From a virus, in IMG/VR virus record IMGVR_UViG_3300028571_000009: DNA of 64,000 bases; one strand, 5' to 3'. Shown in pieces: positions 2,974 through 30,270 of the stretch. The stretch's first letter is position 1. The number at the start of each line of letters is the position of its first letter. A program made the translations under genes and the position numbers. Under the pieces are notes generated by a model. That model had not been told where the DNA came from. It worked only from the letters and a program-made list of their open reading frames with translations, and made no database searches.

Positions 2974-3006
2974 ATGATTGAATATCCAAAAATGTTGACT
3001 CAATGA
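2974..3006 (+). pseudogene. orphaned 5' remnant of dpdA (MIEYPKMLTQ*)
   Basis: Matches dpdA N-terminus MTVYPKM and has a similar TATATT...AAAATAAAT leader; lies just before the HNH cassette. Confidence 0.55.
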
Positions 3007-3015
3007 TATTTATAC

Positions 3016-3078
3016 TAAACCGAAAGGTTACCTGGAACGGTATTGGTTTGGCGACTTTATATTAGTTCCAGGTTTTTT
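3016..3078 (+). ncRNA. candidate antisense small RNA / terminator upstream of HNH-1
   Basis: AACC-GAAA-GGTT hairpin, 9-bp stem 3030-3038/3065-3073 plus T-tract; loop 3040-3052 complementary to 3102-3114. Confidence 0.55.
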
Positions 3079-3116
3079 ATTTTCTAGATATTTATATGTA
3101 AGCCAAATCAATACAT

Positions 3117-3932
3117 ATGAATTACCAAAGAATCTACGATTCGATTATCAATAACGCAAAGTTATTAGAAGAGTCAAGAAAATTACAAAAGAAGCAGAAA
3201 CTTAATTATTTCGAACGACATCACATTTTACCGAAATGTTTGGGTGGTAATAATGATGAAAGTAATCTAGTTTATCTAACGGCAAAAGAGCATTATCTTT
3301 GTCATCGATTATTAGTTGAAATATATCCTGAAAATAGAAAGTTGAAATATGCTATTTGGTTAATGGTAAGCGGATATAGTATAACCAAACAACGATACAT
3401 CCCTTGTAGTAGAATATATGAGCAAATTAAACGATTACATGCAGATAATGTAGCCGCTCAATTTATTGGTAAGCCCAAATCTATTGAACATCGCAAGAAA
3501 TTATCTGATAGCAATATCGGCAAAACATTATCGATTGAACGTAGATTGAAAATGTCCAATACGCTACGTGGTATGAAGAAGTCCGAGGAGACTAAACGTC
3601 GGATGACTAAACCGAAGCCAATTGTTACTTGTCCGCATTGCGGAGTAACCGGGGGCAAAAATACTATGGTCCAATGGCACTTTGATAACTGTAAATCACT
3701 GCCCGGTAATGAACACATACATGATATTAGAACTAATACATTACATGAATGCCCGAAATGTGGTATAAAAAGTACAGCATTATCAAATATGGTTCGATAT
3801 CATTTTGAAAATTGCGGAAAGAAAGTTGATTTACGAAAATGTCCATATTGTGGAAAAGAAATGGATGCTAGAAATGCTAAGAAGTATCATTTCGATAATT
3901 GTAAGTTAAAGAATTTGGTAATTGTAAGATAA
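3117..3932 (+). CDS. free-standing HNH homing endonuclease with NUMOD3-like and C2HC Zn-finger repeats
   Basis: ERHHILPKCLGG...NLVYLTAKEHYLCH; three CxxC...HFxNC repeats. Confidence 0.85.
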   Translation: MNYQRIYDSIINNAKLLEESRKLQKKQKLNYFERHHILPKCLGGNNDESNLVYLTAKEHYLCHRLLVEIYPENRKLKYAIWLMVSGYSITKQRYIPCSRIYEQIKRLHADNVAAQFIGKPKSIEHRKKLSDSNIGKTLSIERRLKMSNTLRGMKKSEETKRRMTKPKPIVTCPHCGVTGGKNTMVQWHFDNCKSLPGNEHIHDIRTNTLHECPKCGIKSTALSNMVRYHFENCGKKVDLRKCPYCGKEMDARNAKKYHFDNCKLKNLVIVR

Positions 3933-18802: not shown

Positions 18803-19010
18803 AGAACAATACGCTGTGTTTGAAAAAGAACCAGCACATGGAAGCGAAGTAAACGGTGTTATACTAGCCCCATTCTACACCAAAGAAGAAGCCGAACAAG
18901 CAAGACAAAAATACGGATATGGTAACGAAAATTATTACGTAGATAAAATGAAATTTGATGAAGTCCCTAGAAAAAGTAACAACTCGTACGATGACAAATA
19001 CACTAGATAA
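18795..19010 (+). CDS. hypothetical protein
   Basis: ATG 18795, MNKEQYAVF... Confidence 0.55.
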   Translation: MNKEQYAVFEKEPAHGSEVNGVILAPFYTKEEAEQARQKYGYGNENYYVDKMKFDEVPRKSNNSYDDKYTR

Positions 19011-20265
19011 ACAATACACAGACCTCCTCCAAGACATACTTGATAATGGAGTAAAAAAAGAAACGAGGAATGGTAAAACATTAAGTGTATTTGGCAGAAA
19101 CATTAGATATAAATTTAAAGATGGTAAATTTCCTTTACTTACAACAAAAAGGATTCCTTTTAAAACTATTGTAACTGAGTTATTATGGTTTCTAAGAGGT
19201 GATACAAACATCAAATACCTTGTTGACAACAATTGTCATATCTGGGATGGCGATGCTTATAAGGCCTCCCAGACTCGTAATGGTAAATGTTATTGTGGTC
19301 ATACATCGACTTGCGATTGTGGAGATATCTCGCAGAGTGAGTTTATTGAGCGAATCAAAAATGATGATGAGTTTGCTAAGACGTGTGGTGAATTAGGGCC
19401 AATTTACGGACGTCAATGGAGAAATTGGAATACAAATGCAATAAGTAGAAGAAGTTCTGGTACTATAAATGAAGATGGTATTGTAGAGAATATGATTTTT
19501 ATTGAAGATTCACCAATACATATAGACCAAATCGCAAACCTGATCAACGAACTTAAAACAAATCCAGACTCAAGACGATTAATGGTTAATGCTTGGAATG
19601 TAGGTGAATTAGATCAAATGGTTCTTCCACCTTGTCATTATGGATTTCAAGTTTATACAAGAGAGTTGAGTTTGGAAGAAAGGGAAAATTTGATGGATAA
19701 AATATATGGTTTAACAAAAGAAACCCGAATAGTACCTTGGAATATATTAGATATTAATAAAGCCAACATTCCAACAAGAACGTTCTCATTAATGTGGAAC
19801 CAACGTTCAGTAGACACATTCTTAGGTTTACCATTCAACATTGCTTCTTATGGTTTACTACTTGAAATAATTGCTAAAGCAGTTAATATGGTTCCTGATG
19901 AATTAATAGGAAACTTAGGTGATGTACACCTTTACAGTAACCATGTTGAACAAGCAAAAAAACAAATTGGTAGAGAGTTTACAGAAGAAGAAATACAAGA
20001 ACACTTAATGCAATCAGGTATGGATGCTTTGATGGAGAAACCAAGAATGGAATATATTTCCAAGCTACCAAAACGAACAAGAGAACCATTCCCATTACCA
20101 ACATTAAACATTAATACAGAATTCTGGCTCACCAAGACAGGTGAGTGTGGTGTTGGTGATTTGACTGATAATATCGATGCATTGATTAATGGGATGCAAG
20201 TCGAAGATTTCCAAATAGAAAATTATCAATCGCACGGGACAATTAAAGCACCGTTATCAAATTAA
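18991..20265 (+). CDS. thyA: thymidylate synthase with insertions
   Basis: ELLWFL, GPIYG, SRR, LPPCH, QRSVD, PFNIASY, GDVHLY, IKAPLS; ATG 18991 preferred. Confidence 0.95.
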   Translation: MTNTLDKQYTDLLQDILDNGVKKETRNGKTLSVFGRNIRYKFKDGKFPLLTTKRIPFKTIVTELLWFLRGDTNIKYLVDNNCHIWDGDAYKASQTRNGKCYCGHTSTCDCGDISQSEFIERIKNDDEFAKTCGELGPIYGRQWRNWNTNAISRRSSGTINEDGIVENMIFIEDSPIHIDQIANLINELKTNPDSRRLMVNAWNVGELDQMVLPPCHYGFQVYTRELSLEERENLMDKIYGLTKETRIVPWNILDINKANIPTRTFSLMWNQRSVDTFLGLPFNIASYGLLLEIIAKAVNMVPDELIGNLGDVHLYSNHVEQAKKQIGREFTEEEIQEHLMQSGMDALMEKPRMEYISKLPKRTREPFPLPTLNINTEFWLTKTGECGVGDLTDNIDALINGMQVEDFQIENYQSHGTIKAPLSN

Positions 20266-21136: not shown

Positions 21137-21361
21137 ATGATAATACCATCAATAGGCGGTACACCGCCCGAACCAAAGCAAATTGATTTCTCCAAAACGA
21201 CCGATATTCTATGCGAATGCGGAAACGATGTATTCATGCCGATGATGAAGTTTAAGAACTTATCAGCAATTGCAAGTCCTAACGGTAAAGCAGGTATAAT
21301 TCCTTGTGAATGCTACGTTTGTACAAAATGTGGTAACATACCTCCGGAATTAGATATATAA
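21137..21361 (+). CDS. Zn-ribbon protein
   Basis: CECG...CTKCG. Confidence 0.65.
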   Translation: MIIPSIGGTPPEPKQIDFSKTTDILCECGNDVFMPMMKFKNLSAIASPNGKAGIIPCECYVCTKCGNIPPELDI

Positions 21362-21373
21362 CAATATTTATAT

Positions 21374-21433
21374 TAAACCGAAGGGTTACCCGGGTTGTGT
21401 TAGTTTCGCAACTACAATGCACCCGGGTTTTTT
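21374..21433 (+). ncRNA. candidate antisense small RNA / terminator upstream of HNH-2
   Basis: AACC-GAAG-GGTT hairpin, 8-bp stem 21388-95/21421-28 plus T-tract; loop 21396-21409 is the perfect reverse complement of 21460-21473. Confidence 0.6.
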
Positions 21434-21474
21434 GATACAGTTTTTGATATTTATATGTAGCGAAACTAACACAT

Positions 21475-22416
21475 ATGAATTACCAAAGAATCTACGATTC
21501 AATTATCAATAATGCAAAGTTATTAGAAGAATCAAGAAAATTACAAAAGAAACAAAAGCTAAATTATTTCGAACGACATCATATTCTACCAAAATGTTTG
21601 GGTGGAAATAATGATAAAAGTAATCTAGTTTATTTGACTGCGAAGGAACATTACTTGTGCCATCGACTACTTGTCGAAATTTATCCCGAAAATAGAAAGT
21701 TGAAATATGCTATTTGGGCCATGATGCGTACAAATACCGAACAACGTAGATACACTCCATCATGTAGAATATATGCTATCATCAGAGAAGAATGGCTTAC
21801 GGCTTTTATTTTAGATAGAAATACCGTTGAATCCAAAAAGAAAATATCAGCAGTACATAAAGGGAAAGTCGTATCAGAATCCACCCGAGATAAAATACGT
21901 GCAGCCCGTAAATTGCAGATACATTATCCCAAAACATTAGAACAAATTACTAAAACTATTAACACCAAGCGTAGATTGGGCAAGCTGGGGCATTCGGGTG
22001 AAACTAAAAGACGTATATCAGCGGCGAAGCTAGGTGGTAAATATCCGCCCATGACTGCGGAACATAAACGAAAAATACAAACTGCTCTGAAAGGTAAGTT
22101 ACGCAGTAAGAGTATATGTCCGCATTGTACTAGATTAGTATCAACGAATAATCAGTATCATTTTGACCGCTGCAAACGCAAACCCGGGAATGAACATATT
22201 ATATTTATACGGTGTAGGTCTAAAAAAGAGTGTCCGTTTTGTAAGTTGATTGTAGATACTGGTAACCGTGTACATTTTGATAATTGTAAGCTTAAGCCGG
22301 GGTATGTATATGTTAAACGTCCGGCGATTAAAGTGACATGTACATGGTGTAACAAAATTGTCGCAAAAGGTAATAGATATCATTTTGCAAATTGTAAAAA
22401 AAATCTTATATTATAG
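21475..22416 (+). CDS. free-standing HNH homing endonuclease, paralog of 3117-3932
   Basis: First 81 aa 80/81 identical to HNH-1; NUMOD3-like and three CxxC...HFxxC repeats. Confidence 0.85.
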   Translation: MNYQRIYDSIINNAKLLEESRKLQKKQKLNYFERHHILPKCLGGNNDKSNLVYLTAKEHYLCHRLLVEIYPENRKLKYAIWAMMRTNTEQRRYTPSCRIYAIIREEWLTAFILDRNTVESKKKISAVHKGKVVSESTRDKIRAARKLQIHYPKTLEQITKTINTKRRLGKLGHSGETKRRISAAKLGGKYPPMTAEHKRKIQTALKGKLRSKSICPHCTRLVSTNNQYHFDRCKRKPGNEHIIFIRCRSKKECPFCKLIVDTGNRVHFDNCKLKPGYVYVKRPAIKVTCTWCNKIVAKGNRYHFANCKKNLIL

Positions 22417-27716: not shown

Positions 27717-29051
27717 ATGGAAAATAAAGACAAACAACTATTAGTGATGGTTTCTCCCATTGCAGCTGTCTCAGGATACGGTTCACGTTCTAGAGATTTA
27801 GCCCGCGCGATTCTGGCACTGGATAAATATAATGTACAATTTATAAGCACCCGATGGGGTGGTACACCACTCAATGCATTGGTATCAGGTCAGGATGATG
27901 ATATCATATCTAGATTAGTGGCTAATGTAACTACACAGCCGGATATTTTTATTCAGGTATCAGTACCTAATGAATTCCAGGCAATTGGTAAATTTAATAT
28001 CGGTGTAACAGCTGGTATCGAAACCACAATGTGCGCAGCCCCTTGGCTAGAAGGTCTGAATAAAATGGACCTGAATATAGTTCCGAGTCAACACTCGAAG
28101 CATGTATTCGAGATTAGTAAGTATGATAAAGTGAATAATAACACCAAACAAAAGGAAGGTGAATTAGCTCTTATCAAACCCATTGAAGTTCTATTCGAGG
28201 GTGTGAATCTCAATGTATACAAAAAGACTGATGAGCTTAATAAGAGTATCTTAGAGCAAATGTCAGCCGTTAAGGAGCAGTTTGCATTTCTCTTCACGGG
28301 GCATTATATGGTAGGTGATATGGGTGAAGATAGAAAGAATGTCGGTATGATGATTAAGTGCTTTTTAGAGGCATTTAAGAATGTAACCGTAGCCCCGGCA
28401 TTAGTATTAAAAGTTAGCGGCGGAACATTCTCTCATATTGATAGATTAGAATTACTACGTAAGATTAACATGATTAAGAAATCTGTCAAAGCTACGCGAC
28501 TTCCGAATGTGTATCTATTACATGGTGATTTAACTGAGTCAGAAATGAACTCATTAAACATGCATCCGAAGATTAAAGCCCATGTCACATTAACTAAGGG
28601 TGAAGGTTATGGTAGGCCGTTAGCAGAGTTTGCTATGACAGGAAAACCAATTGTAGCGACTAATTGGTCAGGACATATTGATTTCCTGAATAAGGATTAT
28701 GTTACATTGATTCCAGGTAAGTTAACGCCTGTACATAAGAGTGCGCAATGGGATAATGTTATCATCAAAGATTCGCAGTGGTTTACAGCTGACTATGGAG
28801 TATTTGTTGCGACTCTCCGGGACATGTATAAGAATTATGACAGCTACTTAGAAAAGTCTAGAAAAATGACCAAGTATATGAAGGATAACTTCTCTTGGGA
28901 CATCATGAAAGATAAACTAGGTGAAATTCTCGGTAAGATTCCGGCGTTTCCTAAAGCAGCTCAACAAATACAATTACCACAATTGAAACGTGTCGGTGAT
29001 ATTCCGAAGATTAATTTACCAAAACTTAAAAAAGTAGAAAGTGCGGCTTAG
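27717..29051 (+). CDS. glycosyltransferase, GT4-like
   Basis: SGYG, RKN, GEGYGRPLAE, SGHIDFL. Confidence 0.85.
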   Translation: MENKDKQLLVMVSPIAAVSGYGSRSRDLARAILALDKYNVQFISTRWGGTPLNALVSGQDDDIISRLVANVTTQPDIFIQVSVPNEFQAIGKFNIGVTAGIETTMCAAPWLEGLNKMDLNIVPSQHSKHVFEISKYDKVNNNTKQKEGELALIKPIEVLFEGVNLNVYKKTDELNKSILEQMSAVKEQFAFLFTGHYMVGDMGEDRKNVGMMIKCFLEAFKNVTVAPALVLKVSGGTFSHIDRLELLRKINMIKKSVKATRLPNVYLLHGDLTESEMNSLNMHPKIKAHVTLTKGEGYGRPLAEFAMTGKPIVATNWSGHIDFLNKDYVTLIPGKLTPVHKSAQWDNVIIKDSQWFTADYGVFVATLRDMYKNYDSYLEKSRKMTKYMKDNFSWDIMKDKLGEILGKIPAFPKAAQQIQLPQLKRVGDIPKINLPKLKKVESAA

Positions 29052-29559
29052 TTACTCTATACTAACTCACAATGAGGGTGAGTCAATTGAAACTCTATTG
29101 AGTTTCTTAGTGGAGTTTAAAGATTCTGAGGATGAAATTGTCGTTGTAGATGATTACTCAGATGATGAATTAACTTTACAAATACTTAAGGATTATCAAA
29201 GTAATAAACACATTAAGTTATTTCATCGCGCACTTAATAAAGATTTCGCTTCGCAAAAGAACTTCTTAATGAGCAAATGCACGGGCGACTATATTTTTAA
29301 TATAGATGCAGATGAGCAAGTATCGCCAGAATTTATCATTAACTTAAAAGATATTTTAGAACTAAATCCTGATATTGAGCTATACGCAGTGCCACGAATA
29401 AATATTGTTACTGGTATAAATGACGGACATATTAAAAAATGGGGATGGCATGTAACTTCTAATGAACGGTATATACAAACGGTAGAATTTGATTTAGATA
29501 ATCCAATTGATTTAGCTCAATTTAACATGTTAACGAGTAATAATTTAATAATTAATTAA
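29041..29559 (+). CDS. GT2 glycosyltransferase, N-terminal half of a split gene
   Basis: THNEG, VVDD, DFASQKN, IDADE, PRIN. Confidence 0.75.
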   Translation: MRLSYSILTHNEGESIETLLSFLVEFKDSEDEIVVVDDYSDDELTLQILKDYQSNKHIKLFHRALNKDFASQKNFLMSKCTGDYIFNIDADEQVSPEFIINLKDILELNPDIELYAVPRINIVTGINDGHIKKWGWHVTSNERYIQTVEFDLDNPIDLAQFNMLTSNNLIIN

Positions 29560-29610
29560 TAGCAACGGTCAGAGTCTATATTGAATTTATATTTCTATAT
29601 TTATACATGT

Positions 29611-30270
29611 ATGGAGATTGTATATTCTAGAAAATGCCCTAAATGTGATTCAACTATTTCGTATAAGGGCGGAAAACATGGCAAGTATGCATGCAGAAAT
29701 GCAGCCGCGGCAGGTAAATTATGTAAAAAATGCATGATGCTCGGGAAGTCTCATAAAGAACGATGGGGCACGCAATATGATGTAATAACAGCTAAACGAA
29801 ATATAAGTTTACAAAATACCCCACATTGGTGGCAAGATAAAATAGTAGATGCCCGACATAAAAACGGAACATATGTTATTAGCGAACGACATAAAGATAT
29901 CTTAAGAATTGTATCAAAATTTTGTAGCAGGGGAGCAGAACATATTCATATTAAGAAAATTCTTATTGAACAAAATATTACATGGGATGAATATAAATCA
30001 GCGTCGTCCGAATATATGAATTATTGTAGAGATGTTGCATATTGGACAAATAGGAGCGGATATACATTATTAGAACATCATGATAAACGTGGTAAAGCGG
30101 GAACATTGGGAGCATATCAACTAGACCATATTATAGAGAAGTCTGTGGGGTTTATCAATAATATTCCCGCGGAAGTAATTGGCCATATATCAAATCTTCA
30201 GTACATACCATGGGAAGAAAATCTAAAAAAACGAAGATACCCCGGAGGTATGAAAAATAAGAAACTATGA
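29611..30270 (+). CDS. HNH endonuclease inserted within the GT2 gene
   Basis: N-terminal CPKC/CKKC; C-terminal YQLDHII...NLQYIPWEENLKK. Confidence 0.7.
   Translation: MEIVYSRKCPKCDSTISYKGGKHGKYACRNAAAAGKLCKKCMMLGKSHKERWGTQYDVITAKRNISLQNTPHWWQDKIVDARHKNGTYVISERHKDILRIVSKFCSRGAEHIHIKKILIEQNITWDEYKSASSEYMNYCRDVAYWTNRSGYTLLEHHDKRGKAGTLGAYQLDHIIEKSVGFINNIPAEVIGHISNLQYIPWEENLKKRRYPGGMKNKKL

Follow-up and report, generated by a model that had tools for sequence, protein, structure and literature searches.

The DNA analysed, a 64-kb stretch of IMG/VR virus record IMGVR_UViG_3300028571_000009 (referred to below as the window), contains two genes of Mob-like HNH/NUMOD3 homing endonucleases, HNH-1 and HNH-2. 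Each gene is preceded by a compact module of two promoter-like motifs (P1 and P2) and three hairpins (H1, H2 and H3), in which part of the loop of the terminator-like hairpin H2 is complementary to the leader adjoining the nuclease start codon. The 111 nt before HNH-2 would serve a self-contained mobile cassette as its RNA control unit. As judged from comparative sequence analysis, the loop–leader pairing is real and acts at the RNA level, and its maintenance by selection is supported by covariation in nine distinct modules; the loop–leader module probably limits nuclease output. The present comparison documents the anatomy and conservation of the module, the covariation of all four helices, the boundaries of the cassette and the energetics of pairing.

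Anatomy of the control module

The arrangement of P1, H1, the H2 stem, the T-tract and P2 described in the original prediction agrees with the sequence at all coordinates, and its likeness to the region before HNH-1 holds over 3006–3119. H3 is a third hairpin, which that prediction overlooked. The parts of both modules and the HNH-2 gene are as follows.

21364–21372, + strand: P1, promoter-like motif ATATTTATA marking the 5′ boundary of the mobile cassette (sequence)
21376–21387, + strand: H1, 5′ hairpin AACC-GAAG-GGTT, abutting H2 (sequence, fold)
21388–21433, + strand: H2, terminator-like hairpin (sequence, fold, nine modules)
21388–21395 with 21421–21428, + strand: stem of H2, self-complementary octamer ACCCGGGT (sequence)
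21396–21409, + strand: anti-leader segment TGTGTTAGTTTCGC inside the H2 loop, exact reverse complement of 21460–21473
21447–21455, + strand: P2, second ATATTTATA, proximal promoter-like motif of the HNH gene and also part of the 5′ arm of H3
21449–21480, + strand: H3, predicted hairpin of 21449–21458 (P2 sequence) with 21471–21480 (AUG region) (fold)
21460–21473, + strand: leader segment GCGAAACTAACACA, complementary to the anti-leader in H2; 1 nt separates its end from the ATG at 21475
21475–22416, + strand: HNH-2, Mob-like HNH/NUMOD3 homing endonuclease, 313 aa (PHROG, Pfam, tblastn)
3006–3119, + strand: HNH-1 module, paralogous, with the same layout as the HNH-2 module
3006–3014, 3018–3029 and 3030–3038 with 3065–3073, + strand: P1, H1 and H2 of the HNH-1 module
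3040–3052, 3088–3096, 3102–3114 and 3117, + strand: anti-leader, P2, leader and ATG of the HNH-1 module

In the HNH-2 module, H2 has a 25-nt loop and a T-run (21429–21433) directly after the stem, and the leader forms the 12-nt loop of H3. The exact complementarity of H2 loop and leader, claimed earlier, was confirmed; in a repeat search, the inverted repeat reaches 17 nt at 94%. The 14-mer has no other match with two or fewer mismatches on either strand of the 64-kb window, and neither the HNH-1 nor the HNH-2 loop has a second target within it. The 3′ end of the anti-leader (UCGC in HNH-2) lies in a predicted apical loop with an unpaired probability of about 0.9, as does its counterpart in every module. 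In HNH-1, the loop (3040–3052) and the leader (3102–3114) form 12 Watson–Crick pairs and one G·U pair. Of the four differences between the two leaders, three are compensated on both sides and one changes a G–C pair to G–U; it thus holds, as was proposed, that the loops and leaders differ between the cassettes yet each loop matches its own leader. Two copies of TTTTTGATA lie 12 nt apart in the stretch linking the H2 T-tract to P2 (21429–21449); they are found in HNH-2 only.

The motif TATTTATA is strand-specific and intergenic, occurring in the window at 19 sites on the + strand and six on the − strand. Eleven of the 19 + strand sites fall in the 12% of the DNA that is intergenic, 5–20 nt before ATGs, and sites of this motif precede genes of unknown function in the replication-gene region. 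The motif is unlike the T4 late motif TATAAATA; a promoter would be the simplest reading. The ATATTTAT part of P2 is invariant in 10 of 10 aligned modules, and the P2 motif lies within the 5′ arm of H3 in all modules.

Loop–leader pairing in nine modules

Searches for nuclease homologues in metagenomes yielded seven further modules of the same type (type A), so that nine distinct modules were compared: HNH-1, HNH-2, L002 (= L081), L099, L101, L103, L104, L106 and L107. Pairs were counted with our own script in a gap-free register of 13 positions, with the conserved GC at the end of the arm as anchor. Of 117 loop–leader cells, 114 are paired (111 Watson–Crick, three G·U and no A·C), the three unpaired cells all being at arm ends, and at least two pair types are found at 11 of the 13 positions. 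When the leaders were permuted among modules, none of 5000 permutations reached the observed pairing count (permuted mean 85.3). The earlier view of the covariation as a sign of selected pairing, formed on two cassettes, therefore extends to nine.

The energies of the cognate duplexes are strikingly uniform across the modules (−17.7 to −23.3 kcal/mol), with a non-cognate mean of −8.8 kcal/mol. The two cognate duplexes of the window have energies of −19.9 and −23.3 kcal/mol, which were reached by none of 500 leader shuffles per module (means −7.2 and −5.8). The complementarity comprises 11–18 nt and is always located within −23 to +3 of the AUG; it enters the 3′ arm of H3 and the start codon, extending to +3 in L101 and to +2 in L106 and L107.

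L106 and L107 are separated by 1.7 kb on a single contig. Their own-leader duplexes have predicted energies of −20.3 and −20.5 kcal/mol, as against −13.0 and −9.9 kcal/mol for the cross duplexes. Since each of these loops matches its own leader, a second genome repeats the two-cassette arrangement of the window. The two cassettes, found on a 50.5-kb Logan contig, flank a single zinc-dehydrogenase (ADH_N) gene; L104 has, at the site in front of that gene, a cassette whose loop and leader are different.

The stems vary in sequence as well. H1 covaries (AAACC/GGTTT, AAACG/CGTTT, AAACA/TGTTT and AAAGA/TCTTT), and the H2 stems of the nine modules are perfect helices of 7–10 bp, differing in sequence and followed by T4–6(C)T5–7; the gap between H1 and H2 is 0–1 nt in all modules. 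H3 is predicted to fold in nine of nine modules (10–14 bp, −5.4 to −10.7 kcal/mol), with the leader segment as its loop and the 3′ arm at or next to the AUG, and its compensatory changes include GT/AC versus TA/TA and AGTAA/TTACT versus AATAA/TTATT. Between the window copies, P1 and H1 together are 88% identical and the whole module is 71% identical, compared with 50% at four-fold degenerate sites.

In a MAFFT alignment (A3), RNAalifold recovered H1 only. The stems and arms are out of register in this alignment; for this reason, the pairs were counted in the anchored register. TATTTAT sites in the window and the collected loci were also scanned for a perfect upstream complement of at least 10 nt. 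The scan gave 12 matches, almost only HNH cassettes, with nine type A modules, the others being L045, L066 and L071; HNH-1 and L106 are under the 10-nt threshold because a G·U pair breaks their run. The P1+H1 pattern ATATTTATNNNAAACCNNNNGGTT was found in IMG/VR only in the L002 contig, besides chance and coding matches. A pattern of P2 and N-terminal codons gave eight loci each in viral and metagenome contigs, among which only L081 (= L002) and L099 are of type A. Look-ups of P0002, P0040, P0064 and P0062 yielded either no DNA or cassettes lacking the module. A search of Rfam, including C4 antisense RNA, gave no family at the gathering score for the window and none at E up to 1 for 21300–21560. 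A group I intron, a ribozyme and a riboswitch were rejected, there being no Rfam match and the cassette being free-standing between genes.

Read at the DNA level, the inverted repeat might be an operator pair through which the endonuclease represses its own gene, or a quasi-palindrome maintained by template switching. The arms do flank P2, the two nucleases of the window differ in their C-terminal DNA-binding regions, and I-TevI is documented to repress itself at an operator that overlaps its promoter (PMC2988022). Both variants are nevertheless very improbable, as the three internal imperfections are all sense-strand G·U and none is A·C, other mismatches being at arm ends, and each arm is part of the loop of a hairpin, the two hairpins covarying independently. 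L002 and L104 have the same loop and leader, although their proteins are only 51% identical over the N-terminal 123 residues and unalignable beyond them. L101, the HNH-2 ortholog (57% identity) at the same site, has a loop and leader intermediate between those of HNH-1 and HNH-2. Half-sites 50 bp apart would also be unusual for an operator. An invertible promoter was rejected too: the arms are only 50 bp apart, the imperfections are of the G·U type and no recombinase gene was seen among the annotated neighbours.

The mobile cassette and its nuclease

Homology of the two window cassettes begins exactly at P1, and the stop codon of HNH-2 is located 3 nt before the clamp-loader gene (22420). In L101/L116, the same junction is occupied by the orthologous nuclease and the same module. 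In L125 and L127 the site is empty, and the stop of a zinc-ribbon open reading frame (ORF) lies 3–5 nt from the clamp-loader ATG. At these empty sites, no promoter motif is present between the zinc-ribbon stop and the clamp-loader ATG, which means that P1 belongs to the cassette. From the shared start of homology at P1 and the empty and occupied alleles, the mobile unit is seen to span P1 to the HNH stop, about 1.06 kb; by the same comparison, it is inserted between the small zinc-ribbon gene and the clamp-loader gene, a tightly packed junction. A terminator-like hairpin and a putative restart promoter arrive with the cassette, which preserves the 3-nt stop-to-ATG spacing at its 3′ end. Such an insertion could break a tightly coupled host operon yet supply transcription to the essential gene downstream. 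A near-identical copy of HNH-1 (L102) is found at the HNH-1 site after denV; the L116 record has a second HNH copy at the contig end, without upstream DNA.

HNH-2 is identified as a homing endonuclease both by family homology and by the occupied and empty alleles at a conserved intergenic site. It matches PHROG 655 (E 6.7e-44) and Pfam NUMOD3 (27.4 bits, cut-off 20.4); a match to HNH_5 is weak and below the cut-off. A tblastn search with the HNH nuclease matched 1091 phage records, the best-matching of which are annotated as homing endonuclease, and the relatives of HNH-2 in T-even phages carry this annotation. HNH-1, a protein of 271 aa, is likewise a Mob-like HNH/NUMOD3 homing endonuclease. 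The two are 47% identical overall, with strongly diverged C-terminal DNA-binding parts, which points to a modular nuclease whose catalytic head is constrained and whose targeting tails are swapped. Codons 1–82 (3117–3362 and 21475–21720) have two residue differences, yet 31 of 246 bases differ. The two coding regions share their first 28 nt exactly, in agreement with a constraint from H3 at the RNA level. A homing endonuclease needs expression high enough to spread but too low to harm the phage that carries it.

Insertion into a packed junction also bears on an alternative in which the module does something other than block initiation: it would form a compact, coaxially stacked two-hairpin fold guarding the RNA against 5′-end-dependent decay, or a transcriptional insulator (terminator and restart promoter) sparing the host operon, while the pairing tunes mRNA stability or processing. 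The gap of 0–1 nt between H1 and H2 in all modules agrees with the first variant, and the replacement of the tightly coupled junction of the empty site by a terminator and a promoter agrees with the second. Such a role is improbable, given that the paired leader never lies outside −23 to +3 of the AUG, a zone in which structure affects initiation, and that complementarity would be superfluous for insulation alone.

Proposed control of nuclease translation

From this organisation we infer promoter activity, termination, the existence of a short RNA, its action in trans and repression. The P1 transcript would open with H1 and mostly stop at H2, producing an RNA of about 58 nt, the H2 loop of which would display the 14 nt complementary to the leader. 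P2, located 3′ of the terminator, would make the HNH mRNA and probably the clamp-loader mRNA too. Equal promoter-to-start spacing would place the start from P1 at the first base of H1 and the start from P2, the predicted 5′ end of the mRNA, at the first base of the complementary segment. By pairing with leader positions −15 to −2, which have no Shine–Dalgarno sequence, the H2 loop would block binding of the 30S ribosomal subunit and lower the amount of nuclease. On transcripts extending past H2, this loop would contact the leader in cis, and H3 would also bury the AUG; only P2 transcripts free of the short RNA would be translated. The chance that the control unit of the cassette works in this way, by a short RNA blocking nuclease translation in trans together with a cis layer on read-through RNA, is estimated as slightly short of even.

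The conservation of P1 and H1 (88%), the possession of P1 by the cassette, the abutment of H1 on H2, the conserved T-tract, the start sites expected at H1 and at the complementary segment, and the predicted apical position of each anti-leader 3′ end argue for a trans-acting RNA. The nearest feature 3′ of the cassette P1 is a hairpin and then a T-tract, and the sequence hallmarks of an antisense small RNA (sRNA) are present: the P1 motif, H2 with its T-tract and 11–18 nt of complementarity at the start region. The complementary nucleotides in the 3′ arm of H3 and the AUG cannot pair with the 5′ arm of H3 and the H2 loop simultaneously, which fits pairing with a P2 transcript devoid of H3.

Several points weigh against a trans-acting RNA. 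H2 has the stem and U-tract of an intrinsic terminator in all nine modules but not the short loop; its loops of 22–37 nt are atypical of intrinsic terminators, and a consensus terminator scan (loops of up to 8 nt) does not call H2. Read-through may consequently be large. P1 is degenerate in several modules, being TATAAT-like in L104, L106 and L107, and no clear P1 is found in L103. H3 alone reproduces the published cis mechanism of the T4 family, and sister cassettes of two other types (B and C, described below) would necessarily act in cis.

An alternative is control in cis only, as in T4 I-TevI and segB and in Aeh1 mobE. Under such control, H3 would bury the HNH start on transcripts from upstream, whether operon read-through or P1 products; kissing of the H2 and H3 loops would clamp the closed state, the terminated P1 product would have no function of its own, and P2, embedded in the 5′ arm of H3, would make the sole translatable mRNA. 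In all nine modules, H3 is predicted to fold so that the promoter motif supplies one arm (5′) and the AUG region the other (3′), a design documented for I-TevI, I-TevII, I-TevIII, segB and Aeh1 mobE (PMC2988022, PMC3014915). Cassettes of the same family have covarying loop–loop pairs in a single leader, such as the type C 7-bp helix, which is 100% paired with four of seven pairs changed on both sides. The downstream clamp-loader gene needs transcription through the cassette, and H2 loops of 22–37 nt are poor terminator loops, so that read-through may be common. Control in cis only would, however, leave no role for the conserved P1 and H1 (88% against 50% at four-fold sites, and not present at empty sites) or for the conserved T-tract right after H2, and the complementarity runs 2–7 nt into the H3 stem and the AUG, where it is unusable while H3 is closed. 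This explanation is considered rather unlikely, though it would account for much of the same data. Action in trans and action in cis are compatible with each other.

Specificity of the two cassettes

The original prediction also proposed cognate-specific control with no cross-talk between the cassettes. The predicted cross duplexes of the window are much weaker (−12.6 and −10.0 kcal/mol) than the cognate ones, and the net gain on cofolding is 0 and −0.6 for the cross pairs versus −2.9 and −5.2 for the cognate pairs; as RNAcofold cannot hold H2 closed during loop–target pairing, the net gains understate loop–target binding. Cross-talk between the window cassettes is thus predicted to be weak. 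Selection against cross-talk, on the other hand, is unsupported: the module is 71% identical while, in the shared N-terminal domain, the two copies differ at 8 of 16 four-fold degenerate positions. Identity of 71% against 50% at neutral sites indicates purifying selection on pairing with compensatory drift, and such drift under plain structural constraint would be sufficient to account for the divergence of loops and leaders.

If the short RNA acts in trans, two-cassette genomes offer a direct test of cognate specificity. In that case, the nine loop–leader pairs would also represent ready-made, compact and largely orthogonal translational repressors, the cognate energies of the set being very similar (−18 to −23 kcal/mol).

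Related leaders and known systems

Type B leaders (L003, L004, L009, L010, L015, L016, L051 and L064; alignment A5) occupy about 120 nt before the ATG at 3001 of homologous HNH genes. They contain a single TATTTAT motif, followed by a hairpin with a loop such as ACTACTAC, GTGCGAT or GGGCAAT. A second, terminator-like hairpin has an inner loop complementary to that of the first, and its T-tract abuts the ATG; there is no second promoter. In type C leaders (L001, L007, L011, L012, L022, L023, L046 and L047; alignment A4), a 7-bp loop–loop helix (or a 9-bp pseudoknot), the covarying helix mentioned above, links the 5′ hairpin and a terminator-like hairpin. Both complementary loops of types B and C are upstream of the AUG in one transcript, without a second promoter. 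In type A, by contrast, the partner of the loop is located 3′ of the terminator and the second promoter, which makes a separate short RNA acting in trans possible. The homologous HNH genes of L008, L025 and L027 have a single TATTTAT-containing hairpin ending next to the ATG at 3001, that is, a plain T4-style promoter-in-hairpin without an upstream unit.

The start region of T4-family endonuclease genes is hidden in a hairpin on transcripts from upstream, and a promoter within that hairpin makes the translatable mRNA; the embedded promoters are late or middle (PMC2988022, PMC3014915). The type A module would resemble these genes in that H3 buries the nuclease start region and has its own promoter motif in the 5′ arm, so that P2 transcripts would lack the inhibitory arm, and in that the enzyme is Mob-like HNH and the phage T4-like. 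It differs in the absence of a Shine–Dalgarno sequence from the window cassette and in the extra upstream P1–H1–H2 unit; no such second layer is described for T4 genes, the known controls in the T4 family being cis hairpins, terminators and autorepression. The new element is accordingly the upstream P1–H1–H2 unit with a leader-complementary loop, whereas the H3 part is an already known design. The module can be regarded as a second, sequence-programmable layer over the promoter-in-hairpin design, carried by the mobile element itself.

The closest functional analogue of repression in trans would be c4 of phages P1 and P7. c4 of the immI region is an antisense RNA, a small molecule pairing through presumed loop sequences with the ribosome-binding region of its target, and the heteroimmunity of phages P1 and P7 owes its specificity to matched differences in RNA and target (Citron and Schuster 1990, as summarised in PMC12197685). 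By analogy, the type A loop is complementary to the target start region, and differences in RNA and target are matched between relatives. c4 is encoded on the same strand, upstream of its target, and is excised from a longer precursor rather than being a primary terminated transcript. Unlike c4, with which the modules have no sequence or structure match (nor any Rfam match at E up to 1), the putative RNA would control a homing endonuclease in a lytic-type T4-like genome and not an antirepressor in a temperate phage.

The plasmid and type I toxin–antitoxin systems CopA/CopT, RNA I/RNA II, hok/sok and par of pAD1 employ antisense RNAs that start from loop contacts and are transcribed from the opposite strand or convergently. 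The RNA proposed here would be analogous to them as a short, stable, terminated RNA with a recognition loop that represses translation of a potentially harmful protein, with an accessible apical seed followed by extended pairing. Unlike in these systems, its complementarity comes from a same-strand inverted repeat upstream of the target.

In the literature searched, no description of loop–leader or kissing-loop control of homing endonuclease genes was found, and, according to a review of 2010 (PMC3014915), T4 had no characterised trans-acting regulatory RNA. A broader proposal is that the HNH cassettes of this clade carry a same-strand antisense sRNA, a primary transcript of 58–76 nt whose terminator loop silences the cognate mRNA only. 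These sRNAs would form an antitoxin-like family of mutually orthogonal regulators, the first class of trans-acting regulatory sRNA in T4-like phages, and would uncouple translation of the nuclease from the essential downstream gene on the shared P2 mRNA. This proposal is put forward tentatively, with the balance somewhat against it.

Genome context

By its gene content, the window covers the part of an uncultured T4-like phage genome that serves replication and nucleotide metabolism. The genes identified include those of DNA polymerase, ligase, thymidylate synthase, denV, dNMP kinase and the small clamp-loader subunit. The G+C content is 36% and the non-coding share 12%; no Shine–Dalgarno sequences are visible in the upstream regions inspected. 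The closest cultured DNA polymerase, that of Microcystis phage Mel-JY01, is only 39% identical, and no cultured relative was found. A megablast search with the HNH-2 locus gave no match among GenBank phages.

The ORF at 29041–29559 represents the N-terminal half of a GT2 glycosyltransferase (Pfam E 5.8e-23). It is followed on the 3′ side by ATATTTATA at 29597 and a 219-aa ORF (29611–30270) without a Pfam match, which was not matched in tblastn searches with HNH-1 and HNH-2. An Rfam scan of the window revealed no group I intron. The thymidylate synthase ORF (18955–20265) encodes 436 aa, with a Pfam match in two stretches over residues 19–343; it is longer than usual and may contain an insertion.

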